From an uncultured Planctomycetota bacterium (GTDB lineage Bacteria; Planctomycetota; Brocadiia; CAIUPP01): a stretch of DNA of 64,000 nucleotides. The position numbers and the translations under genes are program-made. The notes beneath the pieces were generated by a model, which was not told the DNA's origin, searched no databases, and worked only from the letters and a program-made list of their open reading frames with translations. The stretch is taken from NCBI GenBank assembly GCA_903901045.1, contig CAIUPP010000108.1, positions 3,720 to 67,719 on the forward strand, in the 5' to 3' direction. This document shows, in pieces, positions 5,628 through 21,555 of this stretch. Within the stretch, counting starts at the first letter, position 1; every line of letters starts with the position of its first letter.

Positions 5628-5630
5628 CCG

Positions 5631-5646: not shown

Positions 5647-5664
5647 CTCCAGCTACGCTTTTTC

Positions 5665-6036: not shown

Positions 6037-6123
6037 GGCTGAAGTATGTATGTACAGTTAATGCGTTGTGTGTTCTTGACATTAGCATTGACTCTCCGGA
6101 AGCAGACCACTTCGAAGTGGCAT

Positions 6124-6140
6124 CGAAAAGTATATAAACC
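6124..6140 (+). promoter_or_regulatory. CGAAAAGTATATAAACC island motif, near-identical to the copy at 8759-8775
   Basis: Read directly. No convincing ORF lies downstream. Confidence 0.3.
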
Positions 6141-6693: not shown

Positions 6694-7004
6694 CGCCCCC
6701 TTGCGGCCTCAGCCGCTCGTATCTCGCGGTGCGCACACCGCGCTCTCTGCGGCGGATCACCGCCGCCATGCGTGCCGCAGCACACGTCCCATCGGGACCG
6801 GAACGGTCCCGGCTATCTGTCGCCCGCAGGCGACGGCCCCTTCCACGGTCGGAGACCGTGTCGTATAAGCGACTCCCTCTTGTCGAGCTGGATTTCGACC
6901 TCGCCGATGAGAGTGGAGCGAAGCAACCTCCATCGGCAGAGCGGATGGAATCCCTCGACGAGCCAGAGTCGCAGTCTCTTCTTCTTTGGCCCGCGCCCGC
7001 AGGC

Positions 7005-7081
7005 CGAAAGCCCTATAGGGTTAGCTCGCCCACCGATCTTTCATTTCGGTCCCCAAGGGCGAGCGCCTTATACGGCTTTCG
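7005..7081. repeat. inverted pair of island motifs (CGAAAGCCCTATAGGGTTAGCTCGCCC / reverse complement CGAAAGCCGTATAAGGCGCTCGCCC) around a 25-nt spacer
   Basis: Read directly. The right arm continues into GAGGG. Confidence 0.6.
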
Positions 7082-7196
7082 AGGGCCATTGCCCGCCCGG
7101 TCAGCTCTTGCTCTCCTCAGCCATCGGAAGATGCCGGGAGGGTCGCCCCTCCCTGCCTTCCCTCAGGCCTTCTCTTTCAACTCTTGGCCTTTCCGT

Positions 7197-7481
7197 CTAT
7201 TCTTCCTGTGCCATTGCGGCATTGTCAATCAGCTTGGATGCCTGTCGCTTGGTCAGTCCAGGAGCTATCTCGACTCCTAGAGTCTTCAGATACTGCAACT
7301 GCTTGGTAGTCGCAGGCTCTCCGTTCATGCCTTCCCGCTCTTCTCTCATCTGGTCCATCCGTTCATCCTTTGCAATCTCGCCCAGGATTCTTACGGCAGA
7401 TCCTTCATCAGACACCTTGCCTTTCAACTGCGCCAACAGCTCCAGGTAATGGTCCACTTTCGCTTGTATGCTTGCTTTCAT
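7197..7481 (-). CDS. small protein with C-terminal HeH/DUF3072-like motif (ATTKQLQYLKTLGVE..TKRQASKLID); paralogue of 8156-8446
   Basis: The ATG at 7481 lies after GGAGGTGA. Motifs are shared with the paralogue along the whole length. Confidence 0.6.
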   Translation of the reverse strand: MKASIQAKVDHYLELLAQLKGKVSDEGSAVRILGEIAKDERMDQMREEREGMNGEPATTKQLQYLKTLGVEIAPGLTKRQASKLIDNAAMAQEE

Positions 7482-7520
7482 TTTCAGTTCACCTCCTTTC
7501 AATTGCTTGAATTTGCCGCT

Positions 7521-7718
7521 CTATGGAATTGTGCGTGGCAGACTTCCTTTGATGCCGTCATCAACTGGGCTTTCGTCCCGTCCTTTGCCATGCATAGGCG
7601 GGTTCTGAGCTTTGCCTGCAATCTGCGCCATTGCCGTTTGAGCCTCTATCAACGCATATCGCAGTCTTCCGAAGAGCCTGTGAAGTTCCGTCATCAATGC
7701 TTCTGTTTCTTGGTCCAT
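7521..7718 (-). CDS. small helical hypothetical protein
   Basis: The ATG at 7718 lies after AAGGAGGTGA. An alternative ATG is at 7742. Confidence 0.5.
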   Translation of the reverse strand: MDQETEALMTELHRLFGRLRYALIEAQTAMAQIAGKAQNPPMHGKGRDESPVDDGIKGSLPRTIP

Positions 7719-7833
7719 CTTTTCATTCACCTCCTTTGTCATGATCTAAATATAATCAGCCAGGAGGAGCGTCTCCTGGCTTTTTCATCAGCTTCGCCAC
7801 AGCTGACGCACATCATTCCCTGTCCGCTTTTGG

Positions 7834-8121
7834 CTACAGGGTCTCGATAATCGCGTCTGTGATCTCGGACGCTCGCTTCTGGCTCAAGTCCTTGGGAATG
7901 CTCCCATCATGGTCCAGAATGAACGATATCTGATCCAGTGTTGCAGGGGCATTGGTCCCCTTTGCCTCTGGGCCTTCCTCGTTCTGGTCCCGCAGGTTTC
8001 CATTTCGCTTCAGCCTGTGTCTGGCATGAAGCAATTCTTCGATGGCTTTCCCACATTCCACTCTGGCACAATTCAGCAAAGCGATCTGTCGATCCAGCAG
8101 TTCAATGTATTTCTCCACCAT
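7834..8121 (-). CDS. small protein: coiled-coil N-terminus plus degenerate HeH-like C-terminus (ATLDQISFIL..SQKRASEITD)
   Basis: The ATG at 8121 lies after AAGGAGGTGA. Confidence 0.6.
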   Translation of the reverse strand: MVEKYIELLDRQIALLNCARVECGKAIEELLHARHRLKRNGNLRDQNEEGPEAKGTNAPATLDQISFILDHDGSIPKDLSQKRASEITDAIIETL

Positions 8122-8155
8122 TGGTTCTCACCTCCTTGAATATGAAGAGGGGAGG

Positions 8156-8446
8156 TCATCCCTCCCTCTCTCTGGCTTTATCAATCAGCTTCGATGCCTG
8201 CTCGAAGGTAATGCTCGGGCTGAACTCTACTCCCAACCTTCGCAAGTAGGCCTTCTGCTTTTCTGTGGCGCCATCGCCAACGTGCTGTTGCCTTTCCTGC
8301 CTGATCTGGTTGGCCCGAATGTCCTTAGCCATCTCCTGAAAGATGACCAAAGCGACCTCCCGATCTACCCCAAAATCCTTGATCCCTTTGAAGAGTTCAA
8401 GATACTCTGTGGCTGTCATGCCTGTTGTTTCATTCTCGTTTGCCAT
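8156..8446 (-). CDS. small protein with C-terminal HeH/DUF3072-like motif (ATEKQKAYLRRLGVE..FEQASKLID)
   Basis: The ATG at 8446 lies after CAGGAGGTGA. First gene of a four-gene minus-strand array. Confidence 0.65.
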   Translation of the reverse strand: MANENETTGMTATEYLELFKGIKDFGVDREVALVIFQEMAKDIRANQIRQERQQHVGDGATEKQKAYLRRLGVEFSPSITFEQASKLIDKAREREG

Positions 8447-8531
8447 GTTTTTTCACCTCCTGATCATGAGTTTGTGGCTCTTTGCGCCCCAACCACTGTA
8501 TGGGGCCGCAATGAAGTGTGCCCAAACTCAT

Positions 8532-8618
8532 CCGCTCACCCCCCGAGGGCACAGCCCGAAAAGCCTAAAAGGTTAGCTGGCCCAAAGCGCCTTTTACGCT
8601 TTTCAGGGGGGTGAGCGG
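8532..8618. repeat. 87-bp imperfect palindrome: perfect 13-bp outer arms (CCGCTCACCCCCC / GGGGGGTGAGCGG) enclosing an inverted pair of island motifs
   Basis: Read directly. Inner arms are CGAAAAGCCTAAAAGGTTAGC and reverse-complement TGAAAAGCGTAAAAGGCGC. Confidence 0.6.
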
Positions 8619-8812: not shown

Positions 8813-9376
8813 ATGGACGTTTTCACACTCGCACGAATCAAGAACAGGTATCCGGTCGATTTGGATAGTAGTTATGCTCCTCGGAAGTACGCTGCGGACT
8901 ACCTTCTTCAATGGCAAGGTAGACGTTATGGAAATTCATGGGATCGAGAGAGATATGTTCTCTCAGAGGCCCTTGCTCAACCTGGTCCTGAAGTCAAGAC
9001 CCTGGCCGAGCAGGTCTTCGGAAGCCAAGTTCGCGGGCAAAAGCTCCAGGTCATGCATGAAGCCTCTTTGATCTCCGCCCGATACGAGCTTCACCACCGC
9101 ATTCTCAATGATCTCAACCATCGGCTTTACGGCCTGCAAGAGCGGATCAGCATCACGAAGATGCTCGATACCTGGGGACAGTCGAAACAGCTAATCGACT
9201 TGGAGAAGCTTCTGATCAACCTGGAGGCCCAGAAGAATGATGAACGCCTGGCCTTCTGGAAAGACACCCTGAAAGTCAGACAGGAAATGTTCACCGGAGT
9301 CCGGGAATACCAGTCTGCAAGACAGAGAGCAACAATCTTCAAGGACTTGGAGGCGGGCGATGCCAATCAAGCATAG
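8813..9376 (+). CDS. coiled-coil hypothetical protein, translationally overlapped with the downstream ATPase
   Basis: 187-aa ORF with a 17-nt overlap onto 9360. Confidence 0.55.
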   Translation: MDVFTLARIKNRYPVDLDSSYAPRKYAADYLLQWQGRRYGNSWDRERYVLSEALAQPGPEVKTLAEQVFGSQVRGQKLQVMHEASLISARYELHHRILNDLNHRLYGLQERISITKMLDTWGQSKQLIDLEKLLINLEAQKNDERLAFWKDTLKVRQEMFTGVREYQSARQRATIFKDLEAGDANQA

Positions 9377-11051
9377 CGGCAACCCGGACCGCGTCCGAGA
9401 ACTCTGCCGACAGCTCAAGCCCATTCTTGGAGAGAAGATGGAGCAGGTGTTCCAGGCGTACCTGGCTGAGGACGAAACGGGAAAGCAGCAGCTGGAAGCC
9501 TATCTGGAACTGCTTCAGGCAAAGCATATGCCCGTGCGACTCGACGCGGTTGCCACTCAACTCGTTCCCCCGAATCCCGCGCAAGCTCAGGGTGAATATG
9601 AACTGGGCACCATCCTCTATGGCGGGAAGGATCGCGGCACCTTTGGCCTCCGAGAAAATGAATGGATCCAGCATGTGGGCATCTTCGGCAGGACCGGCGC
9701 GGGCAAGACGAATTTGGGTTTCAAGATCGTCGAAGAACTGGTCAAGCATGGAAAACCTGTTCTCATCTTCGACTGGAAAAGGAATTATCGAGACCTACTC
9801 ACCAAGCCGCTCTTCAAGGACGCGAAAGTGTATACGGTCGGCAAGCCCATCTCTCCCTTCACATTCAATCCCTTGATCCCGCCGCCCGGGACCAGTCCGA
9901 AGACGTGGCTCAAGAAACTCGATGAAGTCATCGCGCATTCGTACATGCTGGGGAATGGCGTGCTCTATCTCCTGCAGCAGACTCTTGACCTACTCTACGA
10001 GGAGTTTGGGGTCTACGATGGCACAGTCCAGCACTGGCCGACGTTTCAGGATGTTCTGGACAAGGCCAGAAAGCTCGATGCGCGAGGAAGGGAAGCTGGG
10101 TGGTTGTCATCCACTTTGAGAGCGTTGGCGTCGCTCTGCTTCGGAGACATGGGCGACCTTGTGAATCATCCCTCCGCCAATAGTCCTGATCAACTCCTCG
10201 ACGAGACGGTTATCCTTGAACTGGACGCATTGACTCAACAGGATAAAATCTTCTTCGCCTCGGCGCTACTTCTGTGGATTCATCACCGCAGGATGACCGA
10301 ACCAACCCGAGAACAGTTCAAGCACGCGATCGTAATTGAGGAGGCCCACCATCTCCTCACGGACGAGCGAAAGAGCCTAGTGGGCGGGCAGTCGGTCATG
10401 GAAATTACGTTCCGTGAAATCAGGGAGTTCGGCGAAAGCATGGTCTTGCTCGACCAACATCCGAGTCAGATATCCCTTCCTGCCCTCGGAAACACATTTG
10501 CGACCATATCCCTGAATCTCAAGACTTCGAAAGACGTGACTGCGATGGCTCAGTGCATGCTTCTTGAAAACGAGGAAAAGGATATTCTCGGCAGCCTGGA
10601 AGTCGGTCAGGCCGTAGTCAAGCTGCAGGGAAGAGTCCAAGGGCCGTTCCTGATCCGCATTCCCGAGTTCCAGATCGTGAAGGGCGCGGTTACGGATGAG
10701 ATGATCCGGGCCAGATTACGGACAGAACAGGAGTACGCGCCTGGAATCTCACGTCAGGAGCACAAACCACCGGCGCCGCCAGTGCCTTCTCTGCCATCAA
10801 TCGCACTGGCTAAACCAGAAACGGACGATTTCGTGGCGGCGTTTCTCAATGATGTGGTCGCTCATCCTGAATGCGGCATCGCGGAACGGTACAAGCGACT
10901 CGGCATTAGTGTGCGCCAAGGTCAAAAGATCAAGCTTCGGCTTCTCGAAGCGGGCCTAGTCCATGAGCAGGCAGAGTTCACGAAGACTGGGCGATTGATG
11001 AGACTGGAGTTGACGGGCAAAGGGCACGCAATCGTCGCGGCCTCCACATAG
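9360..11051 (+). CDS. FtsK/HerA-superfamily P-loop ATPase (DUF87-like) with C-terminal winged HTH
   Basis: Walker A GIFGRTGAGKTN, Walker B AIVIEEAHHLL, LLDQHPSQ. C-terminal RYKRLGISVRQGQKIKLRLLEAGLV...LTGKGHAIV. Confidence 0.85.
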   Translation: MPIKHSGNPDRVRELCRQLKPILGEKMEQVFQAYLAEDETGKQQLEAYLELLQAKHMPVRLDAVATQLVPPNPAQAQGEYELGTILYGGKDRGTFGLRENEWIQHVGIFGRTGAGKTNLGFKIVEELVKHGKPVLIFDWKRNYRDLLTKPLFKDAKVYTVGKPISPFTFNPLIPPPGTSPKTWLKKLDEVIAHSYMLGNGVLYLLQQTLDLLYEEFGVYDGTVQHWPTFQDVLDKARKLDARGREAGWLSSTLRALASLCFGDMGDLVNHPSANSPDQLLDETVILELDALTQQDKIFFASALLLWIHHRRMTEPTREQFKHAIVIEEAHHLLTDERKSLVGGQSVMEITFREIREFGESMVLLDQHPSQISLPALGNTFATISLNLKTSKDVTAMAQCMLLENEEKDILGSLEVGQAVVKLQGRVQGPFLIRIPEFQIVKGAVTDEMIRARLRTEQEYAPGISRQEHKPPAPPVPSLPSIALAKPETDDFVAAFLNDVVAHPECGIAERYKRLGISVRQGQKIKLRLLEAGLVHEQAEFTKTGRLMRLELTGKGHAIVAAST

Positions 11052-11115
11052 TTCATAGGACTCAGACCAAATGTGACCGCCGGCCGCTATGTGTGCAACT
11101 CGTATGCCGTAAGGG

Positions 11116-12558
11116 TTATGGTTGGCATGACTTGTCAAGAAGGGTCTCACATAATTTCGCAATCATGGCTTGTCGAGGGTCTTTATACGCCTTGAGATAC
11201 CGACTATTTACGTCCGCGACCCAGGTTTTGGCCTTGCGCGTCAAATCCTGCTCGTGGACAAGGATGTTTCCCAACGCCTGTAATGCTGCCGGATATTTCT
11301 TTTCCCTCATGTGGATTCTGTACAGTTCGATGTTCGCGCGAATGACACCAAAGGTTGCTGAGACCGCTTCAGACTGTACTCTCGCAAGCTTCAGACGCTC
11401 CAGCACATCAGAAACATGGATGTGTCCAATCCCTGCTTCGTATCTGCAATCGTCCAACAACGCCTGTTCGATCGTCATTCGAGCCTCTTCCTCAGGATGG
11501 TCCCTTTCATACACTGTGCCAAGCTGCTTCAACAAATCCCTCGCGGTGTTCATGGTCTCGTCGGCTTTTTCGAAGAGTATCCTCAACCTTTTCCGGTGTT
11601 CACATGGATCGAGACGCACTAAGGATCGTATTTCGTTACGGCAAGCTGAAAGCAGGTCACGATACGCCTTGAATTCCTCCAAGTCGTCCAAATGTGTTCG
11701 TCTGCTTTCGTCGAGATCCTTCAGCAATCGCAGTGATTCCTCTGCAGCGGCGCGAGCCTTTTCGAACTCTCCCGCATGGCGCAATTGCTTTGAGAGCAGT
11801 CGGTAAGCTGTGTAGTGACCTCCTGTTTGCACGAGAAACTCCTCTATCTCCTTTCGTTGACATAGATGCTCTTCGTGCTCAACGTTGCTGGTTGCGCTGC
11901 CCGTGTGCAAGTGGAAATACTGCGCCAAAAGATCCACGAAGAATGGTCTCTTGCCGCGGAGACACAATCGCGCGAGGGCATTGGCGGCGCTTTTCTTGCG
12001 AAAGTATCCCTTTTCCTTACAGATGTGATTCTCGACCAGGAGACCTAGAACGAACCAATCATCGGCAAACTCCATCGCGCTAGCCAACCGCTCCTGAGTT
12101 CCCGTCTGTGCGCCAAGCACGACTTCGCCAAAGCTTCCAAGTAGTTGCTCAACAGTGACATCCGACCCGGGTGGAGAGATGCGTTTGATGCCGCACAACA
12201 GTTGGAGCAACTTCAGGAGTAGCTGTCGTTCCTTCTCCGTATACTGACTGCAGCATCGAGAAAGATCGCGCATCCACCGTTCAGGTTCGGCTGCGCGGGT
12301 ATCGCCCGTAACCAGCGTCGGCATTGGCGTGAGGCCAAGCTTCTCAAAAAGAAGCTTCGCCCTATGGTAACCCAGAGGCGTCGTCTTCGGCTGATTGAGT
12401 ATTCTGGAGATGAACCCTGGGTCAACGCCAAGCTCTCGTGCGAGTTGCACCTGACTCTTGATCTTCCGCCGTTTTTTATACAAACGTATCTGATTTCCGA
12501 TATCCTCCACTTCAATTCCCCACCTCCGCCGCCCCCCCTCACTCTGGTCAAGACTCAT
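11116..12558 (-). CDS. XRE-family HTH regulator fused to a ~400-aa all-helical TPR-like domain
   Basis: IGNQIRLYKKRRKIKSQVQLARELGVDPGFISRILN at the N-terminus. GGAGG lies 8 nt before ATG 12558. The remainder is long and helical-repeat-like. Confidence 0.75.
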   Translation of the reverse strand: MSLDQSEGGRRRWGIEVEDIGNQIRLYKKRRKIKSQVQLARELGVDPGFISRILNQPKTTPLGYHRAKLLFEKLGLTPMPTLVTGDTRAAEPERWMRDLSRCCSQYTEKERQLLLKLLQLLCGIKRISPPGSDVTVEQLLGSFGEVVLGAQTGTQERLASAMEFADDWFVLGLLVENHICKEKGYFRKKSAANALARLCLRGKRPFFVDLLAQYFHLHTGSATSNVEHEEHLCQRKEIEEFLVQTGGHYTAYRLLSKQLRHAGEFEKARAAAEESLRLLKDLDESRRTHLDDLEEFKAYRDLLSACRNEIRSLVRLDPCEHRKRLRILFEKADETMNTARDLLKQLGTVYERDHPEEEARMTIEQALLDDCRYEAGIGHIHVSDVLERLKLARVQSEAVSATFGVIRANIELYRIHMREKKYPAALQALGNILVHEQDLTRKAKTWVADVNSRYLKAYKDPRQAMIAKLCETLLDKSCQP

Positions 12559-12796
12559 CAGTATGCCTCCCCAATCTCGTACTCACAATTGTCACTGTGC
12601 AACATCCAGCATTGTAGTGCGACAATATTACAAAAACAAGTGGCACAGCGACTTGCGAACGACAATTTCTGAGGCACAATAGACTGCAGATGTCATACGT
12701 TAGTAAGTCCAGTGTAAATGAGCGACGCCAGCGAGGTGGCTGCCAAGGACTTTCAACGAATCAAGAACGGCGAGTTGCCCTTAAGGAAGCCTCACG
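12559..12796. promoter_or_regulatory. A/T-rich divergent intergenic region with ACAATTGT palindrome (12585-12592) and further GACAAT/CACAAT half-sites (12621, 12661, 12675)
   Basis: Read directly. Lies between the XRE regulator and the long plus-strand operon. Confidence 0.4.
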
Positions 12797-12967
12797 ATGT
12801 TCAAGGAACTGGGCGACAGATTGGAAGCGGGAATGCGTGGAATGATCATGTTGCTCGTGCTCTTGATGGCGCTGTCCGTCATTGCGCTCGGTACTTATCT
12901 GATAGTGATGGTCTGCTGGCGGATTGGCGTACTGTGTGCCAACAGCATTTTGCAGGGCCCATGGTAG
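12797..12967 (+). CDS. 56-aa single-pass membrane peptide
   Basis: Hand translation gives MFKELGDRLEAGMRGMIMLLVLLMALSVIALGTYLIVMVCWRIGVLCANSILQGPW. Third-position G/C use is better than in the overlapping 88-aa ORF. Below the ORF-track length cut-off. Confidence 0.35.
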   Translation: MFKELGDRLEAGMRGMIMLLVLLMALSVIALGTYLIVMVCWRIGVLCANSILQGPW

Positions 12968-12976
12968 AGGAATCCC

Positions 12977-13567
12977 ATGTTTGAGACCGTGAAACGCCTG
13001 CTGAGCTACTTCCTGGGCCGTTCGTCGCAGGGCGCTGCGCGGCCGCCGGCGTCGGCGCCAAATCAGCCCCTGACCAGCGACGAAATGCCGATCCCTCCCG
13101 GTCGGCCCATCGAGCGCACGGTTGAACGGCAAGTCATTCCGGGGACGAGGCTCTCAATCATGGTTACCCAATCGGCGTATTCTGGCCCGGATGGGTCGCT
13201 CGACCGGGTGCGTGATGTCCGGGGCGTGATGGCTGGCTGCAGCCATCTGGTCACAAGCTATGAGCAACTCGGCGGACGCTGCATCTTCTGTCAGACGGAG
13301 GCCGCGGAGTTGGTGTCGGCTGGCGCGACAGACCTTGCCGCGTTGGAAGCAATGACGCTCTTTTGCGTGTCGTGTATGTCCGAATGCGCATTATGCCGCC
13401 GCACGATATGCCGTCGGCACGCTCTCCAGTGGCAGGATGATGTCGGCGCGGTCGCATATCTCTGTCCGACCTGCCGAGAGGCCGCAGACCGCGCGCGATT
13501 TTTCCAGAAGCTGATGCGCGCGATTACGTTCCCGTTTGTCAACAATCCGGATCAGGAACACAAATGA
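12977..13567 (+). CDS. cysteine-rich zinc-binding protein with RING-like (C4C4) spacing
   Basis: GAGGA lies 5 nt before the ATG. Spacing is C102-x2-C105-x24-C130-x2-C133-x3-C137-x2-C140-x22-C163-x2-C166, plus C145 and H148. Confidence 0.65.
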   Translation: MFETVKRLLSYFLGRSSQGAARPPASAPNQPLTSDEMPIPPGRPIERTVERQVIPGTRLSIMVTQSAYSGPDGSLDRVRDVRGVMAGCSHLVTSYEQLGGRCIFCQTEAAELVSAGATDLAALEAMTLFCVSCMSECALCRRTICRRHALQWQDDVGAVAYLCPTCREAADRARFFQKLMRAITFPFVNNPDQEHK

Positions 13568-15744
13568 GCGCCCTGGATCGAACGATCAACACAGGTTTCC
13601 TCGACAACGGCGACTTCGGGTTCCGAAGGCTGACGCCCGACCCTGAACTCGCCCGTCTGGAGAAGATCCTGGACAAGAAAGGCATGAAACAGCGTCCGGA
13701 AGTCCAGGAACTGGAACTGCAAGCCGCTCTTGGCTGGCCAGGCACGAGGGTATGGGCGCGGGAGCGACTGCAAGCAGCCATTGATGCCGAAGAAATGGAT
13801 GCCGTTCGCAACCCGGATGAGTTCCGGCCGTACGCGCCAAATCATCTGCTGAACGATGGCGACCTCCACGTCTTCAACCAAGTGGACGGGGTAGAACGAC
13901 GGTTGCGTCCTGACGTTCTTCTGCGCGGGACTCTTATCTGTGGCCCTCAGGGCGGCGGCAAGACCAGGCTCGTGGCCTACATTATTAGACAGATTCTGCG
14001 CAACTACCCCTCAATCCGTGTCTTCATGATTGACCCGAAGGGAGAACTTGTCTCGTACGCCGACGATTTTCCCACCACAGTCCATGTTCCCGGTTCGGAG
14101 ATTTCACTCGATTTCGGCGCTCCTGAAGAGAAGGATCGCGCCGCTCACCTACGAGAGAACCTCCAGCATATGAGTGGCGTCTGCCATCTTATTCAGGGAA
14201 CGAGCCTTCTGTACGAAGCCGGTGAGATTGCGCTTCCTCAGCTCGATGTCGCCCGGCGCGTCACCGGTCAGAATCTCGAAGTCTGCATCCGCGACATTCG
14301 ACTTGCATTGCCGATGGTTCCGGATACTTCAGATTACAAGCGCCAGGGCTTCCTGCAATCGACTCAGACGGCCACGCTGCGAATCGAACTCGGGAGCGGC
14401 AAGCTCTTCGTATGCAGAAAAGGCGCCTCAATGCGTCGATTGTTCGGTGCCAATCCCATTCTCACTACGCAGGACCTTGTTGACCCGTGGCCTTGCGAAA
14501 TGCTGCTGCTCACGATCTTCAACTGGCTCCGTCGGGACGCGCGTAGCCAGCCGACGACGAATGAACTGCGGGCACTTGTGGTCATTGATGACGCGCACCT
14601 GTACATGAGCAAAGAGGTCAGCGCGGTTATCACGGCCCCACTCGAATGGACGTTGGCGATTCTGCGCAGCAGTGGCGTTGGCGTCATTCTGGTGAGCCAT
14701 CTGCCAAGCCAAATTCAGCCGGGCGTGCTGGCTCTGTGCCAATTGATGCTGATTGTCGGAGGCGTGCATGGCGGCCCTGATCGGGAGGTGATCGCGAAGG
14801 CACTTTCACTGAATCACGAGCAAGAGCGGCAGCTTGGGCGCATGCAGCCGCGTGAGGTCGTGGGTTTCTACGCCGGGTCGCGATGGCCGTTACCCATTCA
14901 TGGGTGGACTGCAGATATGCCAGACCCCCGTCCCGACTGGTCAGCGATTGCGGAGCGCAGCAAGGCGTTCATCGCCAGTCTGGGCATACTTCCCTACCAG
15001 AACCTGTGGGAGTACCGGGAGGTGGTTGTTGTCCAAAACCCGCCTGCCCAACCCCAGGTACCCGCCGCCGGGGACTCGTCGATGGAACGCCCGACGGCCG
15101 AAGGCCTGCCAGCGAACGCCAATCGACTGCTATGGGATTGCATCTCCTATCCTTTTGATAAGTACACGGCCAGGTTGGATCGTCTCGAACTGTCCGGTCG
15201 CGACGGACAGACCGCACGGCGTGTCCTCGAACAGAGCGACTTGGTCCGTTCTCTGGACGTCGGACAAGCAATCTATTTGATCGTCACGCGTGATGGCTAC
15301 AAGGTTCACCAGCAAGCACCCCACGCTCACTTCAGTGAACAACTTCTAGAGCACAACTACCTAGAAGCTCTGGCCCGACATTATCTACTCCAGGAGCCTT
15401 CCGTAGACCGAGTGGAATTGCACGTGCCGGTCAATGACAAAGGAGCTTGCGTGGACATGGTCGTATACCGGAAAGACGGATCCATGGAGGCTTGGGAGCT
15501 CACGATCAGCACCGGCAATGTAACCGGGAACGCAATCAAGTGTGGCGGCGAAGGCTTCCGTCGCATCGTCTTTCTGTGCAGGGACCACGCCGTGCGGCAG
15601 GCTGTGTCAAAGCGCATCGAACGATCGGGACTGCCACCGGACCTGAAACACCGCCTGCGGTACGTGTTGTTTAGCACACTGACGCGCAAGGACCAAGAGG
15701 CGCGACGTGAACGCGGTTGGCCCCGGAACGAAGTGAGACACTGA
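13564..15744 (+). CDS. FtsK/HerA-superfamily ATPase with wHTH and C-terminal PD-(D/E)xK-like domain
   Basis: ATGA overlap with the upstream gene. Walker A GPQGGGKT, Walker B LVVIDDAH, VSHLPSQ (paralogous to 9360-11051). C-terminal EHNYLEALARHYL..VELHVP..VDMVVY..AWELTIS..NAIKC. Confidence 0.85.
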   Translation: MSALDRTINTGFLDNGDFGFRRLTPDPELARLEKILDKKGMKQRPEVQELELQAALGWPGTRVWARERLQAAIDAEEMDAVRNPDEFRPYAPNHLLNDGDLHVFNQVDGVERRLRPDVLLRGTLICGPQGGGKTRLVAYIIRQILRNYPSIRVFMIDPKGELVSYADDFPTTVHVPGSEISLDFGAPEEKDRAAHLRENLQHMSGVCHLIQGTSLLYEAGEIALPQLDVARRVTGQNLEVCIRDIRLALPMVPDTSDYKRQGFLQSTQTATLRIELGSGKLFVCRKGASMRRLFGANPILTTQDLVDPWPCEMLLLTIFNWLRRDARSQPTTNELRALVVIDDAHLYMSKEVSAVITAPLEWTLAILRSSGVGVILVSHLPSQIQPGVLALCQLMLIVGGVHGGPDREVIAKALSLNHEQERQLGRMQPREVVGFYAGSRWPLPIHGWTADMPDPRPDWSAIAERSKAFIASLGILPYQNLWEYREVVVVQNPPAQPQVPAAGDSSMERPTAEGLPANANRLLWDCISYPFDKYTARLDRLELSGRDGQTARRVLEQSDLVRSLDVGQAIYLIVTRDGYKVHQQAPHAHFSEQLLEHNYLEALARHYLLQEPSVDRVELHVPVNDKGACVDMVVYRKDGSMEAWELTISTGNVTGNAIKCGGEGFRRIVFLCRDHAVRQAVSKRIERSGLPPDLKHRLRYVLFSTLTRKDQEARRERGWPRNEVRH

Positions 15745-15980
15745 TGGAAAGAATCAACTGGCGTGCCGTCTTGCTCGTGGCTGGCGTCATCTTCCTGCTC
15801 GCCTATCGCCGCGCTCTCGGCGAGTTGCTCTCTGAACTCCGCATCCACGAAATGTGGCGCGAATTCTGCGGAAGCATCTGGGCCATGCCATCGCTTGGCC
15901 GGTTCACCTTGATCGTTATGGTCATGGCGCTTCTCTACGTCACTGCATACTTCCTGGTCCTGAACCGGAGACAGCGATGA
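15744..15980 (+). CDS. 78-aa two-TM membrane protein
   Basis: TGATG overlap with the ATPase stop. Two hydrophobic segments. Confidence 0.55.
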   Translation: MERINWRAVLLVAGVIFLLAYRRALGELLSELRIHEMWREFCGSIWAMPSLGRFTLIVMVMALLYVTAYFLVLNRRQR

Positions 15981-16156
15981 ACTGCATGGGAACCTACGTC
16001 AATGATACGAAAGGGATAGGCGCATCGCTGGCGGGCGTACACCGCTCGTGTGCACCGCCCCCAGCAAAAGAACCGCCGCTTGGAGCGCACGAAGGCGAGC
16101 TTTTGGCGCGACGGCCCTGCCACGCCGTGAAGTGGCCGAGGAACTGTGCAGAATGA
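15977..16156 (+). CDS. possible 59-aa coupled ORF
   Basis: ATGA overlap with the 15744-15980 stop. No motif found. Confidence 0.3.
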   Translation: MNCMGTYVNDTKGIGASLAGVHRSCAPPPAKEPPLGAHEGELLARRPCHAVKWPRNCAE

Positions 16157-16244
16157 AGAATGCGGGACACGCATGCTATGCGAACTGATTTCGCAACACA
16201 CGGGAATCGTCCAAAGGCCCTCTTTAAAATGAAAGGAGGTAAGC

Positions 16245-16475
16245 ATGGGGTTCTTTGAACTCGTTGGCCTCGTCACTGCCCTCGTCTTCACCTACAGGGT
16301 TTTGCGGCGGCGTGGCCTGTCGGGGACGCGTTTGGGGCCCGAGTCCCGGACTCGCACCATCGGCCGAAGTTTGAAAACAATAGGTGGTCAAGATGAGATG
16401 TACTGGTCTTTTACACGAGGACGCCAGTACTCTTCCGGCAGACCAGTCGGGAAACGCGTTTCTGGTAAGGAGTGA
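16245..16475 (+). CDS. 76-aa protein with N-terminal TM segment and basic tail
   Basis: Strong SD (AAAGGAGGTAAGC-ATG). Confidence 0.55.
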   Translation: MGFFELVGLVTALVFTYRVLRRRGLSGTRLGPESRTRTIGRSLKTIGGQDEMYWSFTRGRQYSSGRPVGKRVSGKE

Positions 16476-16480
16476 AAGCC

Positions 16481-16702
16481 ATGCGATTAATCAGTGCTAA
16501 TGGCGAGGTACACGAAGTAGAAGAAGATGCTGACGGATATGTGGATATCGGCCGAATGCACAGTGACAGTGGATCAGCCGGACGTGCGCTGATCGTACAA
16601 CACGCCGACGGCAGTAATGAGATTCTTCCGCCAGCCGGAAAGAGTTTGGTCAGGCCCGGCGATGTCTTCGTTGACGCGCCTCGCGCCGAGCGAGGGAGAT
16701 AG
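16481..16702 (+). CDS. 73-aa ubiquitin-like (beta-grasp, ThiS/MoaD/multi-ubiquitin-like) candidate
   Basis: AAGGAG lies 8 nt before ATG 16481. The C-terminus LVRPGDVFVDAPRAERGR resembles the ThiS/MoaD/Ub last strand plus tail. Sits immediately upstream of the E2-like and JAB-E1 genes. Confidence 0.5.
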   Translation: MRLISANGEVHEVEEDADGYVDIGRMHSDSGSAGRALIVQHADGSNEILPPAGKSLVRPGDVFVDAPRAERGR

Positions 16703-16704
16703 CA

Positions 16705-17094
16705 ATGGGCTTGTGTAACAACACCATCTTGCTCCGGGACCTCAAGGAGCTTTCGATCGTGTGTAAGGTGCTGGCTTCGCGCGACTTGCGCACCGTCATT
16801 GTCGAAGATGTGCGGTTGCCTCCGGGCTGGAATCGCACACACACGCGGATGCGCATCCAGATCCCGGAGGACTATCCACTCAGTCCTCCGGGCGTGTCGT
16901 CCAGCCCAATCTTTCTTGAGACGGGCTTGCGGTATCACGGGCAGGTACCCAGAGATTATCACAAAAACTGCACGGTCGCAGAAGAGGGGTGGGCGTGGCT
17001 CTGTTACGAGAGCATTGATTGGGCGCCTAACCGGGATAACCTTATCTCTCTGCTCGAGCGGGTTCGCGCTGACCTGACGAATCCGCGGCTCTGA
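16705..17094 (+). CDS. UBC/E2-like protein (prokaryotic E2 family)
   Basis: IQIPEDYPLSPP followed by WAWLC(100)YESIDWAPNRDNLISLLERV parallels the UBC pattern YPxxPP ... C ... WxP. Confidence 0.65.
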   Translation: MGLCNNTILLRDLKELSIVCKVLASRDLRTVIVEDVRLPPGWNRTHTRMRIQIPEDYPLSPPGVSSSPIFLETGLRYHGQVPRDYHKNCTVAEEGWAWLCYESIDWAPNRDNLISLLERVRADLTNPRL

Positions 17095-17105
17095 AGGAGA
17101 CGATT

Positions 17106-18686
17106 ATGAAAACAACTGTCTTGCGCCTGACCCAAAACCAATGGGCGCAAATATGTGACTCCATTAGGAACGCCCGCCAAGTGGAACAGTTCGGCTTCTT
17201 GTTAGCCCGCCGAGCGGTTTCACATCTGGGAGAAGATATTTTCTTGGGCCAAAAGATGATCTTCGCTGAAAGAAGAGACATGGAGGTCCAGTCCGCCGGG
17301 TATGCGCGGCCAGGCCGTAAACTCCAGGGGCTGGCTTACCAGTTGGCATATAACGGGAACTTGTCCATCATTGATTTTCATACGCATACGCATTCGGGGC
17401 AGCCGCATTTCAGTTCTATTGATGACCACCACGGTCAGATGAACGCCGCCTATGTCACCGAACATTTCCCCGCACAGTGCCAGATGGGAATGGTAGTTCT
17501 CAATCAGGATGCCACGGCCTATGAGGGAAGAATATACGATCCAAAGGCGAGGCGCTTCGACACTCTGCACCGAGTCGAACTCCTTGGGTCGCCAATCTCT
17601 TGTATGCCAGCACCTGATAAGTTGACCGCTTCCGATCAGGAACTTTTCGCTCGACACAGCCTAATTGCTGGGTGGAACCAGTCCCGCCTAGCCACCATCC
17701 GTGTGGGTCTTGCAGGTTGTGGCGGAACGGGTGCTCTCATGCTGCAGGGGCTAGTGGGCATGGGCGTGGGAAGGCACGCTGGCATCATCGTTTGCGATCC
17801 AGACCGCGTGGAGAAGTCCAACCTGCCGAGACTGCCTTATGCTGAAGGCAAGGACGCCGGCCATTTCAAAGTGCGCGTCGCAAAGCTCTTCCATTATCGG
17901 CGCGACCGGCACGTCCGAATCCGTCCTTACTGCTTGGGGGTGCAGTCGTTCTGGGCTCGGGAGGCGCTCAAGACGGCGCACCTGCTCGTCGGTTGTGTGG
18001 ACTCCGAAGCGGCTCGTAGCGTTCTGATGGAACTCTCCCTCCGCTACTTGATCCCCTATCTCGATGTCGCCACAGAGATCGTTCCAGTGGGTGGCGGCAA
18101 GTATGACGCCGTCGGTCAAGTCCGCGTGGTCCTCCCTGGCAAGACTGGATGCCTTTTTTGTTGTGGTGGAATCGATACACAAGAGGTCGCCGCGGAGCGG
18201 ATGCCTCACCGTTGGCGCCGCCAGCGAGAACGGGCAGGGTATGTTCGTAATACTCAGGTCACGCCGACGCCGGCAGTCATTCATCTTAACGCGGTTCTCA
18301 CCGGCCTGGCTCTATCTCACCTGGCGAAGCTTATCCAGGGAGAGGATTTCTCCGGTCACGAGCACTTGTACTACAGCCGCAACCGCGATGCCATCATGGC
18401 TGTGGCCTGCAAACCGAATCCGGAGTGTTCTGCGTGCGGTCCTGGTGGAATTCTCGGAGCTGGAGACCCCATTGAGGAGAACCCCGGATCGGGCTCAACG
18501 GAGTTGATGGAGGTCGGCCCAACCGAATGTCCAGAAGGAGGGGACAGTGGCAAGGTTACAGACATGGAGGTCGCCCAGGTGTCGAACCATGACTCTGGAA
18601 CGGCAAAGGCCGACGATGAAACTCATCGCATGCCCTTTTGGTCGTGGCTGTGTGGGAGAAGATCGCGTATTCACAAGTTGAACTGA
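17106..18686 (+). CDS. JAB/JAMM metallopeptidase - ThiF/E1-like adenylyltransferase fusion
   Basis: AAGGAG SD. JAMM motif: E27, H94-T-H96-x7-S104-x2-D107. E1 part: GLAGCGGTG, DPDRVEKSNLPR, LLVGCVDSEAAR, and CxxC pairs C349/C352 and C441/C444. Acidic disordered tail. Confidence 0.9.
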   Translation: MKTTVLRLTQNQWAQICDSIRNARQVEQFGFLLARRAVSHLGEDIFLGQKMIFAERRDMEVQSAGYARPGRKLQGLAYQLAYNGNLSIIDFHTHTHSGQPHFSSIDDHHGQMNAAYVTEHFPAQCQMGMVVLNQDATAYEGRIYDPKARRFDTLHRVELLGSPISCMPAPDKLTASDQELFARHSLIAGWNQSRLATIRVGLAGCGGTGALMLQGLVGMGVGRHAGIIVCDPDRVEKSNLPRLPYAEGKDAGHFKVRVAKLFHYRRDRHVRIRPYCLGVQSFWAREALKTAHLLVGCVDSEAARSVLMELSLRYLIPYLDVATEIVPVGGGKYDAVGQVRVVLPGKTGCLFCCGGIDTQEVAAERMPHRWRRQRERAGYVRNTQVTPTPAVIHLNAVLTGLALSHLAKLIQGEDFSGHEHLYYSRNRDAIMAVACKPNPECSACGPGGILGAGDPIEENPGSGSTELMEVGPTECPEGGDSGKVTDMEVAQVSNHDSGTAKADDETHRMPFWSWLCGRRSRIHKLN

Positions 18687-18924
18687 CTTCACAAGACCTC
18701 ACTTGTTCGCCCGGAAAAGAGGTGAGGCTGACGACGTGGCCGACCCTTGAAAGGAGATGGACGAAAATGGCGAGTGTGAAATGTGAGAACTGCAATTGCC
18801 GGATCGGTTTCATGTCGTTCAGAAAGACCGCTTACAGCAAAACCATACTGGTCGTGCGGCCGCGATGATCCAGCCGTGAAATCCTATCGTAACTCGAAAT
18901 GTCCGAGGTCTCAATAAGCGAGGC

Positions 18925-19614
18925 ATGAATATGCCAGAGTCAACCAATGATCGAGCGCATAAGGTTGTCCTCTATGCGAGGGTCAGCACGCACGATCAGT
19001 CTGTAGACATGCAGCTCGTGGAACTCAGACGCTTCGCAGAGGCGAGAGTATGGAAGGTAGTCGGCGAGTTCGCGGACAAAGGCATCTCCGGCGCCAGAAC
19101 TTCTCGCCCGGAGTTTGACCGGATGATGAAAATGCTTAGGCGGCGCGACGCCGACGTGCTGCTCTGCTGGAAATACGACCGCGTGGGTCGGAGTACGAGC
19201 CACCTCCTCAGCATCCTGGAGGAACTGCGCGCGCTCAACGTAGGGTTCTGCTCCATGACTGAGGGCGTAGACACAACAACGCCCGCCGGCAAAATGGTCT
19301 TCACATTTCTCGCTGGCATCGCTGAGTTTGAGCGGGGCCTCACCCGGGAGCGCGTTCTGGCAGGAATCCAGAATGCCCGTGCACGCGGAGTCCGGTTTGG
19401 CAGACCGCGCGTCGGCTTTGACATTGCCGCGGCAGTGGTGTTTCGCAAGCAAGGCATGTCCATGCGGGAGGTTGCGAGAACTGTCGGCGTCAGTCCTGCC
19501 ACGGTCTTCCGCGTTCTGAAAGCACTCGAGCAATCAAGGGAGACCGCCAGCAGTGCTCCAGAAGGCGCCGCAAAAACCTGCGGCAAGGATTCTGAAACAA
19601 CGGTGCAATCATGA
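18925..19614 (+). CDS. small serine recombinase (resolvase/invertase family) with C-terminal HTH
   Basis: VVLYARVSTHDQ catalytic serine motif, DRVGRS, GRPRV, HTH (REVARTVGVSPATVFRVL). Confidence 0.9.
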   Translation: MNMPESTNDRAHKVVLYARVSTHDQSVDMQLVELRRFAEARVWKVVGEFADKGISGARTSRPEFDRMMKMLRRRDADVLLCWKYDRVGRSTSHLLSILEELRALNVGFCSMTEGVDTTTPAGKMVFTFLAGIAEFERGLTRERVLAGIQNARARGVRFGRPRVGFDIAAAVVFRKQGMSMREVARTVGVSPATVFRVLKALEQSRETASSAPEGAAKTCGKDSETTVQS

Positions 19615-19700
19615 ACGTTGGGGAAGACAAGACCCGTGAAAAGGTCTCGTCCCATACGGCGTGTGAAAAGGTGAAGGTTCTGAAACGTTGCGTGGGATGC

Positions 19701-19716
19701 CACAACTTATACAGTG
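19701..19716 (+). promoter_or_regulatory. CACAACTTATACAGTG, island-motif-like box centred 25 nt upstream of ATG 19735 with no SD
   Basis: Read directly. Confidence 0.3.
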
Positions 19717-19734
19717 GACTGAAAAGATCTCAAG

Positions 19735-20034
19735 ATGGCCGCGAACATCACACTTGCTGAATACCCACAAACGCCCTGGATGACCATTGACCAAGTGGCT
19801 GCGTATCTCTCCGTCAGCGCAGGCACGGTTCGCAATTGGGTCAGCCAGAGGTACATTCCATTCGTCCGCCGTGGCCGCGTCGTGCGGTTCCATCGCGAAA
19901 GAGTCGACCAGTGGATCAGCGCTGGCGCCTGCGCCGGACGGCGCAGGGTTCCTGCTCCCCCTCCCACCGGAGCTACGACGCTGATTTCCGAACGACAACG
20001 CTTAGGACAGGATCCGCTTTCAGCATCCGGCTGA
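19735..20034 (+). CDS. xis: excisionase/AlpA-type MerR-like HTH protein
   Basis: MTIDQVAAYLSVSAGTVRNWVSQRYIPFVRRGRVVRFHRERVDQW. The 3' end overlaps the convergent integrase by 62 nt. Confidence 0.7.
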   Translation: MAANITLAEYPQTPWMTIDQVAAYLSVSAGTVRNWVSQRYIPFVRRGRVVRFHRERVDQWISAGACAGRRRVPAPPPTGATTLISERQRLGQDPLSASG

Positions 20035-21346
20035 CCGCCTGGCGTTTCGCCTCCATGCCGAAATGCGTATACCTCTGCGTCATGTCCAGCGAGGCGTGTC
20101 CCAGGATGCTCTGCACAAGAATAGGATTCATGCCTTGTTCCTGCGCCCGCGTGGAGAAAAGATGCCTGAGCGAATGTGCTTTCGTCAGGTCCGGCCGACC
20201 GATTTTCTTCGTCAGCTTCATAAACTCCTGTCGAATTCGTTTCTCAGGAATCTGCCCCATCCCACGGAGAAACGGGAGCATCTTTCGCATGACTTCCTTT
20301 TCGTTCAAAGCCCCCTCGGTCCGCGCCTGGTCGGCCATTTCTCTCAGGTGATTGGAGAACGCCTGCGCAGAGACAAAGCGTTCCATTTCTCGCTGCTTGC
20401 CCTCCACGGATTCCCGGTTCAGAAAAATAAACCCTTCCTTCCGGCCGTCAACGCACCTCAGCAGCATCTCTTTGATCTCCGGCAGGATTGGCAGGGCGCG
20501 CTCGTCACGGGTCTTCACGTTCCAGAACATCTCCGGCTTTGAGCGAATGTGAAAAACCCCTTCCTCAAAATTGACGTCCGAGACCAGAAGATGGGTCAAT
20601 TCCCCCACCCGAAGGCCGTAAGCCGCCAGCATGAAGAAGACAGGCTTCTGCCATTCATCGCAAGCCTTGAAAAACGCCTGTTGTTCTTCAACCGACAGCA
20701 TCTCAGGCTTGCGACCATCATCTCTGCCAATCTTGTCTATCTGGACCGTGCCGAATGGATTCTCTGCATAGGGGGGCAGGTAGTGCCGTTTCCGCGCCCA
20801 ATTGAACGCCGTGCGGCACGTGCTCAAGATGAATGCAATACCGCCCGCGCGATAGGGGCGTTGCGGCCCCTTCTGACTGCCGTTACGGGTTCGAGTCAGT
20901 GCCCGCATCCATTTGATGAAGTCCTCGACAGTCCCTTGGTCGACATGGGCGGCTGTGGAAATGCCGCCTCGGGTGCGGGAGAACTCAGTAAAATGAGACA
21001 GTGCTGCGCGATATCGGTCCACCGTGCGAACGGCGAGCCGCTGCACTTTCTCGGCGTGGTCCACATATTCTTCCACCAATCTGTCAACGCCGACGTGGGT
21101 ATAGCCGAATGGAGAGGGGCGGTCTTCCTCAAGGCTTTGATTTGAGCCGCTGGCTGCCGCGCGAGCGGAATTCAGGTTACCTTCGACACGCTGCCGAATG
21201 CTTCGCCCTTTTTCCCGGTAGTAAAGATAATATGTTCGGCCGCGCTTGTAGATGGTGACGTTGCCAAGCCGCTCAACCTTGGCGTCGCGGGTATGCCCCT
21301 TCTCCGTCTGTCCTGTGTGGCCTTTGGGTAGGTGTTCTTGGGCCAT
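19973..21346 (-). CDS. int: tyrosine integrase adjacent to tRNA-Ser
   Basis: GLRVGELTHL (R), HSLRHLFST (HxxR), GHASLDMTQRYTHF (H..Y). The ATG at 21346 lies after GGAGGATATCAG. The ORF opens at 21391. Confidence 0.9.
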   Translation of the reverse strand: MAQEHLPKGHTGQTEKGHTRDAKVERLGNVTIYKRGRTYYLYYREKGRSIRQRVEGNLNSARAAASGSNQSLEEDRPSPFGYTHVGVDRLVEEYVDHAEKVQRLAVRTVDRYRAALSHFTEFSRTRGGISTAAHVDQGTVEDFIKWMRALTRTRNGSQKGPQRPYRAGGIAFILSTCRTAFNWARKRHYLPPYAENPFGTVQIDKIGRDDGRKPEMLSVEEQQAFFKACDEWQKPVFFMLAAYGLRVGELTHLLVSDVNFEEGVFHIRSKPEMFWNVKTRDERALPILPEIKEMLLRCVDGRKEGFIFLNRESVEGKQREMERFVSAQAFSNHLREMADQARTEGALNEKEVMRKMLPFLRGMGQIPEKRIRQEFMKLTKKIGRPDLTKAHSLRHLFSTRAQEQGMNPILVQSILGHASLDMTQRYTHFGMEAKRQAVSRMLKADPVLSVVVRKSAS

Positions 21347-21465
21347 CTGATATCCTCCAGTGGGTCGGAAAGTTTTCACAAATTCTTTCACAAACCGTTA
21401 CAAAGGAGGATAGCAAATGGAATAGACCTTGTCAACTCAGGGCTATTCCAATAGGTCGGCAAACA

Positions 21466-21555
<90 letters not shown>

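Follow-up and report, generated by a model that had tools for sequence, protein, structure and literature searches.

Within a 64,000-nucleotide (nt) stretch of DNA from an uncultured Planctomycetota bacterium (assembly GCA_903901045.1, contig CAIUPP010000108.1; hereafter the window), positions 12797-18686 hold a cassette of plus-strand genes that appears to join a ubiquitin-like protein (Ubl) conjugation pathway to an ATPase, a cysteine-rich protein and small membrane proteins. The explanation that we consider best, with a probability of about one half for the whole of it, is that the cassette is one operon for a two-part machine and forms the conserved core, on the recombinase side, of a family of islands that integrate at tRNA genes and occur mostly in Planctomycetota. 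Its most likely role would be defence or exclusion against incoming DNA, with a slight edge over the close rival, the element's own DNA handling. Judged by sequence comparison, the conjugation core is a new branch of the known Bub/6E kind, with a cysteine E2 and without BubE. Among prokaryotic systems, the Bub pathways, type II CBASS and Bil stand closest to eukaryotic ubiquitination.

Operon structure

All nine open reading frames (ORFs) reported for this strand in an earlier reading of the sequence (the original prediction) were found where it had placed them, and the junctions that it described proved to be as given when re-read. Eight of the nine are conserved genes and one, of 59 amino acids (aa), is doubtful. 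Numbered g1 to g9 along the strand, they are:

12797..12967, + strand: g1, 56-aa hydrophobic peptide with one or two transmembrane (TM) segments, first gene of the cassette
12977..13567, + strand: g2, 196-aa Cys-rich protein with two predicted zinc sites
13564..15744, + strand: g3, 726-aa P-loop ATPase of the HerA/FtsK superfamily with a winged helix and a restriction-endonuclease-like domain, both predicted
15744..15980, + strand: g4, 78-aa protein with two TM helices
15977..16156, + strand: g5, 59-aa ORF, doubtful as a gene
16245..16475, + strand: g6, 76-aa protein, a TM segment at its N-terminus followed by a basic tail
16481..16702, + strand: g7, 73-aa candidate Ubl (Multi_ubiq-like) ending in ...ERG-R
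16705..17094, + strand: g8, 129-aa E2 of the UBC fold, Prok-E2_E/BubB-like, with Cys100 at the catalytic position
17106..18686, + strand: g9, 526-aa fusion of a JAB/JAMM peptidase and an E1 adenylation domain, with a variable C-terminal tail

The stop codon of g1 (TAG, 12965-12967) is followed by GAGGA and the ATG of g2 at 12977. Genes g2 and g3 overlap by ATGA (13564-13567), the start of g4 overlaps the ATPase stop in TGATG (15742-15746), and g4 and g5 again share ATGA (15977-15980). Gaps of 5 nt (16475 to 16481) and 2 nt (16702 to 16705) separate g6 from g7 and g7 from g8, and AAGGAG stands ahead of the g9 start at 17106. An alternative start of g7, GTG at 16472, overlaps the g6 stop and yields 76 aa; the 76-aa ORF of the closely related locus L037 begins at the equivalent position. 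The sole sizeable gap, of 88 nt (16157-16244), is followed by a strong Shine-Dalgarno (SD) sequence, AAAGGAGG, ahead of g6. A promoter and terminator scan of 12400-19000 gave nothing above shuffled expectation; that the arrangement is an operon by more than chance follows from the conservation of its synteny in many diverged loci (see below).

The 59-aa ORF g5 is probably not a gene, which reduces the nine-gene operon of the original prediction by one: it has 35% similarity in the relatives L037 and L117, against 71% for its neighbours, it has no room in L058, and it is uncalled in relatives. The interval 16130-16250, which takes in the 3' part of the gap just 5' of g6, shows 77% nt identity to L037 and L117, while the overlapping 59-aa ORF is poorly conserved; a promoter or another regulatory element internal to the operon may lie here.

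Conservation of the cassette

Related loci (L numbers) were gathered through JAB-E1 only, with a 16-sequence JAB-E1 alignment used for locus finding. The informative loci, with JAB-E1 proteins 33-40% identical, come mostly from Planctomycetota metagenome-assembled genomes (Pirellulales, Sedimentisphaerales, Anaerohalosphaeraceae). The full set of a Cys-rich protein with eight ligands, a HerA-like ATPase whose tail corresponds to that of g3, a ~70-aa protein with two TM helices, a Ubl, an E2 and a JAB-E1 was present in 21/21 of them (L001, L004, L006, L007, L012, L014-L017, L037, L039, L041, L044-L047, L050, L053, L058, L117 and L124), and a small TM peptide also belongs to the recurring set. 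Gene order is permuted once, in L006 (Ubl-E2, JAB-E1, zinc-ribbon protein, ATPase). The linkage outlasts splitting of the ATPase tail into a separate gene (L001, L004, L014, L041), joining of Ubl and E2 in one protein, and replacement of the ATPase by a paralogue, which directly adjoins Ubl-E2 in L001, L004, L041 and L053. The five database homologues of g3 and of g2 likewise lie in such cassettes. The original prediction had granted that the linkage would be accidental if the flanking genes were not conserved beside JAB-E1 homologues; they are kept in every informative locus, and the linkage of the 5' and 3' halves is not fortuitous.

Divergence from the closest relatives, L037 and L117, differs along the cassette: identity is 84-93% for the Ubl, E2 and JAB-E1, ~71% for g4 and g6, 66% for g2 and ~55% for the ATPase.

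The conjugation core is related to Type I Bub

In g9, a JAB/JAMM domain (~residues 1-165) precedes an E1 adenylation domain (~170-455). Pfam returned ThiF (1.6e-27) as one domain at residues 190-442 and a weak Prok-JAB match, and PADLOC gave only partial 'E1-E2' matches over the adenylation domain. The top PDB match is Citrobacter BubCD (E 4e-10), which covers both domains (query residues 67-401). The JAMM set (E27, H92, H94, S103, D106) does not vary in two alignments, of 25 and 16 homologues, and neither do the adenylation residues GxGxxG at 204-209 (G204/G207/G209), R242, K255 and D299. The JAMM-ThiF fusion with intact motifs that had been claimed is thus upheld, with one correction: the JAMM histidines, given as H94 and H96, are H92 and H94, which align with H91/H93 of BubCD. 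The only conserved Cys residues of the E1 are two zinc-type CxxC pairs, and in the same two alignments the crossover loop has no conserved Cys; it carries an invariant Gly378-Tyr379 aligned to BubCD Tyr370. The residue facing Tyr379 is taken to be the catalytic Tyr370 of the published work because the PDB chain is numbered +2, as its His and Asp ligands indicate.

The E2 encoded by g8 matches Pfam Prok-E2_E just under the Pfam cut-off (E 6.5e-5), and the best PDB match of its family profile (27 members) is Citrobacter BubB (1.5e-5). Cys100, in the sequence WAWWCYE, aligns with the catalytic Ser333 of BubB (WS-RH) and is followed by Tyr-Glu, not by x-His; WAWWCY is nearly invariant among the homologues. 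Among 1.84 billion representative proteins, a full HMMER scan found only 132 relatives of this E2, of which 98 have Cys and 19 Ser in the catalytic column.

The small protein encoded by g7 likely adopts a beta-grasp fold, as its place in the operon and a set of partial similarities suggest. Arg71-Gly72 is invariant among 25 homologues, and after this pair come 0-4 residues, a single Arg in the case of g7, or a fused E2; Ubl-E2 fusions occur in nine loci (L001, L004, L006, L014-L016, L039, L042 and L060). The C-terminal pattern agrees with the published JAB cleavage of BubAB after Gly, so that processing by the JAB domain is predicted. Over its whole length the family can be aligned with the protein encoded ahead of the E2 in the distant locus L009, a match to Pfam Multi_ubiq (4.5e-11). 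One member of the g7 clade scores weakly with Multi_ubiq (E 0.018), g7 itself matches no Pfam family, and hhalign placed the g7 family in register with three Multi_ubiq proteins at a probability of 4.8%, which is not significant. A search of the PDB with the g7-family profile found nothing. Taken together, the Pfam and PDB matches and the invariant motifs support the Ubl, E2 and JAB-E1 assignments of the original prediction.

Type I Bub (6E.1/DUF6527) consists of BubAB, a Ubl-E2 fusion, BubCD, a JAB-E1 fusion, and BubE (PMC11601596; Iyer et al. 2006, PMC1779556, row 6e). BubE/DUF6527 is stated to be present in all Bub operons, and their E2 has a catalytic Ser, in the reading Ser-x-His, and no catalytic Cys; the JAB domain of BubCD cuts BubAB after Gly and so frees the Ubl; no biological function or target of Bub has been found so far, and the word 'atpase' occurs 0 times in the paper (PMC11601596).

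By these comparisons the 3' half of the cassette is a distant relative of Type I Bub, in a clade sister to it, and this comparison is closer than those with BilA-D and Cap2/Cap3 that had been proposed, given the BubCD and BubB matches. The two share a JAB-E1 homologous over both domains, with JAMM ligands and loop Tyr in register and no loop Cys, an E2 homologous to BubB/Prok-E2_E, a Ubl whose Gly is extended or fused to the E2, so that JAB processing would be needed, and a setting in tRNA-inserted mobile islands. They differ at the E2 active site (WAWWCYE versus Ser-x-His), and the combination of an E1 tyrosine with an E2 cysteine predicts a hybrid chemistry. They differ further in that the window clade lacks BubE/DUF6527 (PF20137) and a CapH/CapP or CapW regulator, has a single small Ubl domain, and is tied to a Cys-rich protein, a HerA/FtsK-fold ATPase and TM proteins. 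PF20137 matched none of g1-g6, and phmmer searches with two BubE sequences gave nothing at E <= 1 in the window, L001-L063, L117 and L118. As a positive control, canonical operons made up of Multi_ubiq, Prok-E2_E (WSRH), JAB-E1 and BubE were recovered around more distant homologues of JAB-E1 (27-33% identity); BubE was found in L120-L123, and the E2s of L120 and L122 read WSRH. Separately, L009 (8246-11389) encodes a Multi_ubiq protein, a Ser-x-His E2 and a JAB-E1, with an HTH and Peptidase_M78 pair (CapH/CapP-like) upstream; BubE is uncalled and there is no ATPase, and this locus may be a minimal three-gene form.

Bil systems have a multidomain IAD-AAD-CYS E1, a separate JAB gene and a Cys-based E2. 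The cassette resembles them in holding Ubl, E2, JAB and E1 activities in one operon and in its cysteine E2; in contrast, g9 has a single adenylation domain without a Cys domain, fused to JAB, and its PDB search gave no sequence match to Bil proteins. Type II CBASS comprises CD-NTase and effector genes and an E1-E2 fusion (Cap2), whereas the cassette proteins contain no CD-NTase domain and the E1 is fused to JAB, not to the E2. The combination of a Ubl pathway with a Cys-rich protein, an ATPase and TM proteins is undescribed in the literature searched, a scope that did not include the 2011 RING work of Aravind; the original prediction, which had not recognized a described system, agrees with this.

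The ATPase and its partner proteins

The ATPase g3 matches HerA_C, DUF87 and FtsK in Pfam, mad8 (5.6e-14) and HerA in PADLOC, and models that include CedD, CedB, TraD, VirB4 and TrbB/E in NCBIfam. Its ATPase domain (~residues 120-460) carries the Walker A motif GPQGGGKT at residue 127 and the Walker B motif VVIDDA. An AlphaFold2 (AF2) model has a mean pLDDT of 65.6, with 75-87 in the ATPase core. Foldseek matched it at probability 1.0 to HerA (of Sir2-HerA and NurA-HerA complexes), TrwB, VirB4 and DndH; the best E-values were those of HerA from anti-phage systems, and the TM-scores of TrwB and VirB4 were as good as those of HerA. The modelled fold thus does not separate defence HerA proteins from conjugative translocases. 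Residues 1-120 have no profile match and were modelled mainly as helices (pLDDT 37-77), not as a HAS barrel.

The C-terminal tail likely consists of a winged helix-turn-helix (wHTH) and a restriction-endonuclease-like fold, placed by the model at ~517-574 (nt 15112-15285) and ~594-716 (nt 15343-15711). Its secondary structure runs H-H-H-b-b, then a-bbb-a-b-a, with pLDDT ~50-70 over the endonuclease-like part. His597 and Asp631 are the same in every sequence of the tail alignment, and Glu645 and Lys659 are kept in most members and lost in the split proteins of L001 type, where the E-x-T motif becomes Q-C. Profile matches of the tail were weak, to MarR/IclR and once to REase_MTES_1575 (E 0.0084), and against the PDB its profile gave marginal matches of wHTH type only. 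Within the gene, 13847-15394 is strongly diverged from L037 and L117, with flanks 83% identical, and 13847-15023 is 79% identical to L058. This mosaic pattern indicates recombination among cassette variants within the ATPase gene.

With Sir2-HerA/Nezha, DUF4297-HerA and PADLOC mad8, g3 shares a HerA-fold ATPase paired with a nuclease-type domain, which in g3 is a predicted one. It differs from these anti-phage systems in the lack of a Sir2 or DUF4297 partner, in an N-terminus not modelled as a HAS barrel, in its predicted C-terminal wHTH and endonuclease-like domains, and in the coupled TM proteins and Ubl pathway. With FtsK/TraB and type IV coupling-protein translocases it shares the motor fold, a (here predicted) DNA-binding winged helix that follows the motor, a membrane partner with two helices and a place in the backbone of an integrative element; unlike them, it has its TM helices on a separate small protein, an additional endonuclease-like domain and a link to Ubl conjugation, and is accompanied by no relaxase or other transfer genes.

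A gene of g2 type always lies directly 5' of the ATPase gene. Eight ligands of g2 are invariant among 11 homologues (C102xxC105...C137xxC140x4C145xxH148...C163xxC166), and their spacing (CxxC, 31 residues, CxxC-x4-CxxH, 14 residues, CxxC) resembles that of PHD and RING cross-brace domains. No Pfam, NCBIfam or PADLOC family matched g2, the Pfam RING, PHD and U-box models included. Its AF2 model, from a shallow alignment, was unusable (pLDDT 48.6) and found nothing below E 0.1 in Foldseek.

The small membrane proteins are kept to differing degrees. The hydropathy segments of g1 lie at residues 15-33 and 34-52; L117 has a copy with 43% identity in the same position and L014 a weak one, and analogous TM ORFs of 59-62 aa precede the Cys-rich gene in L001 and L004. 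The TM segments of g4 lie at 8-26 and 50-68, and its slot is occupied by a 2-TM protein of 64-86 aa in L007, L012, L014, L015, L017, L044-L047 and L050. The product of g6, which has a TM segment at 2-20 and 12 Arg in addition to the strong SD of its gene, is 71% identical to its counterparts in L037 and L117 and 36% to that in L058; it is missing from deeper relatives and is specific to the subclade of the window.

Integration module

Downstream of g9 the window contains the following features:

18638..18868, + strand: 5' part of a Cys-rich gene (remnant), marker of a recombination breakpoint
18925..21555, mixed strands: integration module, composed of the next four features
18925-19614, + strand: serine resolvase (Pfam, NCBIfam)
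19735-20034, + strand: HTH_17 excisionase-like gene (Pfam, NCBIfam)
19973-21391, - strand: tyrosine integrase (Pfam, NCBIfam)
21466-21555, - strand: tRNA-Ser (ARAGORN, Rfam)

G+C content is 0.51-0.61 up to ~22 kb and ~0.65 beyond. The low G+C content, the recombinases and the tRNA downstream place the cassette at the recombinase-proximal end of a genomic island, and the tRNA island of the original prediction is in this way confirmed by the tRNA-Ser, the integrase and the G+C step at ~22 kb. A recombinase lies downstream in 15/16 loci with at least 3 kb of downstream sequence (a serine recombinase once, in L046), and in 12 loci a tRNA gene of varying identity abuts it. In deeper relatives JAB-E1 is followed by a conserved ~95-aa membrane protein, in some of them by a PriCT-like gene, and then by an HTH_17 excisionase-like gene and an integrase. 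Upstream genes vary even among close relatives and are often defence-like (AbiE, PLD nuclease, helicases, MmeI-type restriction-modification, NACHT-like, SLFN-like).

Overall, JAB-E1 distances rise with integrase distances (Mantel r 0.61, p 0.0008). Between the window and L037, JAB-E1 scores 0.91 and the integrase 0.03. Nucleotide homology to L037 stops at window position 18834, inside the truncated Cys-rich ORF 18638-18868. In L037 the full gene, of 157 aa, lies after JAB-E1 (4584-5057), and the window keeps a 5' remnant of it; the two ORFs have RLTTWP.LERRW.KMASVKCENCNCRIGFMSFRKTAY in common. Past 18834 the window has the resolvase, excisionase (xis), integrase (int) and tRNA-Ser, and L037 has a tRNA-Met. 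As read from these alignments, the integration module has been swapped between near-identical cassettes.

No copy of the tRNA end of at least 14 nt (a candidate attL) was found upstream of the tRNA in the window, and in 11 related loci only chance-level matches of 12-14 nt to the tRNA end were found upstream of it. In several related loci the integrase ORF runs at its 3' end into the adjoining tRNA gene (L013 4366-4441, L015 15480-15551, L047 4810-4882), which places the attachment site within the integrase coding region there.

Proposed mechanism and possible roles

The steps proposed here are drawn from motifs and from the published biochemistry of BubAB and BubCD. By analogy, the JAB domain of g9 would likely trim Arg73 after Gly72 of g7 and, in relatives, sever the Ubl from the Ubl-E2 fusion; the E1 domain would then likely adenylate Gly72 and carry the Ubl on Tyr379 as an oxyester, from which it would likely pass to Cys100 of g8 as a thioester and on to a target. 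The second part of the machine would be a membrane-associated DNA-handling module made up of the g3 ATPase and its obligate two-zinc partner g2, with the translationally coupled 2-TM protein g4 as the likely membrane anchor; the TM proteins g1 and g6 would belong to the same module. Obligate co-occurrence and translational coupling argue that a complex of g2, g3 and g4 serves the pathway either as effector, as target or as targeting device. Most likely, the Ubl pathway would modify or license the ATPase complex, or g2 would serve as its adaptor or target-recognition subunit.

Partner genes fixed in this way offer a concrete candidate effector or target, which makes the question of what such pathways act on a testable one. 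The natural Ser-to-Cys switch at the E2 active site, with the E1 Tyr kept, bears on the interconversion of oxyester and thioester chemistry in evolution, and the cassette can serve as a conserved marker of the backbone in a so far undescribed family of integrative islands. The mobile elements and defence systems of Planctomycetota, the phylum in which these islands occur, have to our knowledge received little study. A bolder form of the proposal, which we advance tentatively and hold to be doubtful, is that a Bub-related hybrid cascade (E1 Tyr oxyester to E2 Cys thioester) dedicated to a membrane-anchored translocase-nuclease and its zinc partner forms a previously unrecognized class and the defining engine of new tRNA-integrating elements of Planctomycetota, in which Ubl conjugation would directly control DNA translocation or cleavage, whether to keep out foreign DNA or to mobilize the element.

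The edge given to defence stems from several circumstances: the characterized relatives are immune pathways, the neighbouring genes are conflict-like, and the ATPase and zinc protein are fast-evolving and mosaic. The pairing of HerA with a nuclease, a familiar theme of defence, is counted on the same side. Several points weigh against this proposal of a two-part defence machine. The target of the Ubl is not singled out by sequence, and PADLOC gave no family match beyond the generic HerA and E1 regions. The strict adjacency to xis and int and the primase-like gene of some elements fit propagation of the element about equally well, as does the FtsK/TraB-like layout of a motor, a winged helix and a separate TM partner. 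Parts of the protein assignments are also soft: the endonuclease-like domain comes from a moderate-confidence model and weak profiles, and its E-x-T motif is lost in proteins of L001 type; 'RING-like' for g2 is a reading of the ligand pattern, with a fold unconfirmed by structure; and the Ubl fold of g7 is backed by context, one alignment and weak profile scores.

It is possible, if in our view not probable, that the cassette is instead the element's own propagation or maintenance machinery, in which the ATPase would move, process or segregate excised double-stranded DNA (dsDNA) under regulation by the Ubl pathway. Models for this are the FtsK-like TraB with Spd proteins in actinomycete integrative elements and the Ced-type ATPases. 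The cassette lies between variable cargo and xis, int and tRNA in 15/16 informative loci, a PriCT-like (primase) gene stands between JAB-E1 and xis in some elements, and JAB-E1 and integrase distances are correlated as given above. The ATPase itself fits, with a winged helix C-terminal to the motor, a coupled 2-TM protein, NCBIfam matches to CedD, CedB, TraD, VirB4 and TrbB/E, and Foldseek matches to TrwB and VirB4 on a par with HerA. Set against this, integrases have been swapped between near-identical cassettes (window versus L037, breakpoint 18834), genes for a relaxase, pilus, capsid or terminase did not turn up, PHROGs gave no structural matches, viral contigs held no relatives, and att repeats were found neither in the window nor in 11 related loci. 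Moreover, single-ATPase dsDNA transfer is known from mycelial actinomycetes and is not known from diderm bacteria, which we count against a propagation role.

There is little chance that the cassette is an already described Type I Bub, Bil or type II CBASS set whose 5' genes are unrelated neighbours. BubCD and BubB are its closest solved structures, the Ubl/E2 and JAB-E1 layout matches Type I Bub, and its distant JAB-E1 homologues sit in canonical Bub operons with BubE; however, the E2 has Cys, BubE was not found in the window, L001-L063, L117 and L118, neither the multidomain E1 and separate JAB of Bil nor the CD-NTase and E1-E2 fusion of CBASS is present, and the 5' genes are conserved partners. 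A sulfur-transfer or peptide/cofactor-biosynthesis function of ThiF-like and small beta-grasp proteins (ThiF/ThiS, MoeB/MoaD, MccB-like) is very improbable and was rejected on the E2, the JAB domain and the context: the E1 domain does score with ThiF, MoeB and MccB models, all below cut-offs, but every locus has, by fusion or adjacency, a conserved-Cys E2 and a JAMM peptidase, the conjugating enzyme BubCD is the best match, and the setting is a mobile island without thiamine, molybdopterin or microcin genes.

Other features of the window and of related loci

An origin of the element from a virus or satellite was considered and rejected: PHROGs gave no structural or packaging matches apart from generic P-loop ones, a BFVD fold search returned HerA-like proteins only, and viral contigs contained no relative detectable with the JAB-E1 profile. 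Upstream of the cassette the window contains:

441-746, - strand: homologue of an ORF of ~105 aa found between JAB-E1 and the integrase in L001-type elements
1659-3017: SLFN/AlbA_2 and HATPase_c_4 protein
3174-3974: second tyrosine recombinase
4533-5627: Cdc6/Orc1-like AAA ATPase
8813..12558, mixed strands: upstream island neighbours, composed of the next three features
8813-9376, + strand: 187-aa ORF, overlapping the second ATPase
9360-11051, + strand: second HerA-like ATPase (DUF87 1.2e-12; best NCBIfam match CedD, 2.2e-22)
11116-12558, - strand: HTH_3 and TPR protein of 480 aa, divergent, between the two ATPase modules

The second ATPase has 80% nt identity to sequence upstream of the cassettes of L118 and L119. 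Since 9360-11051 encodes the paralogue that adjoins Ubl-E2 elsewhere, the element of the window carries both ATPase paralogues. The slot of the HTH_3 and TPR protein holds a NACHT-like protein of 1117-1245 aa in L118 and L119, and no homology was found between the window protein and the NACHT-like protein of L118; as far as these sequences tell, this is a variable slot for a sensor or regulator. Positions 1-6036 may represent a second, tandem or degraded element. Rfam found nothing but tRNA in 1-22000. The interval 6046-8614, likewise without an Rfam match, has no convincing genes, only plus-strand ORFs with Pro/Ser/Arg-rich low-complexity translations; its AT skew is strongly negative (-0.32), and so is its GC skew.

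Among the related loci, L007 (1-6100) and L046 (240-6050) appear, from ORF lengths and order and with Pfam assignments from L007 only, to have upstream cargo in common, which comprises a large AAA_11/12 helicase (L007), an ORF of ~420 aa, a nuclease of the PLD family and, on the other strand, an RtcR-like sigma-54 activator.

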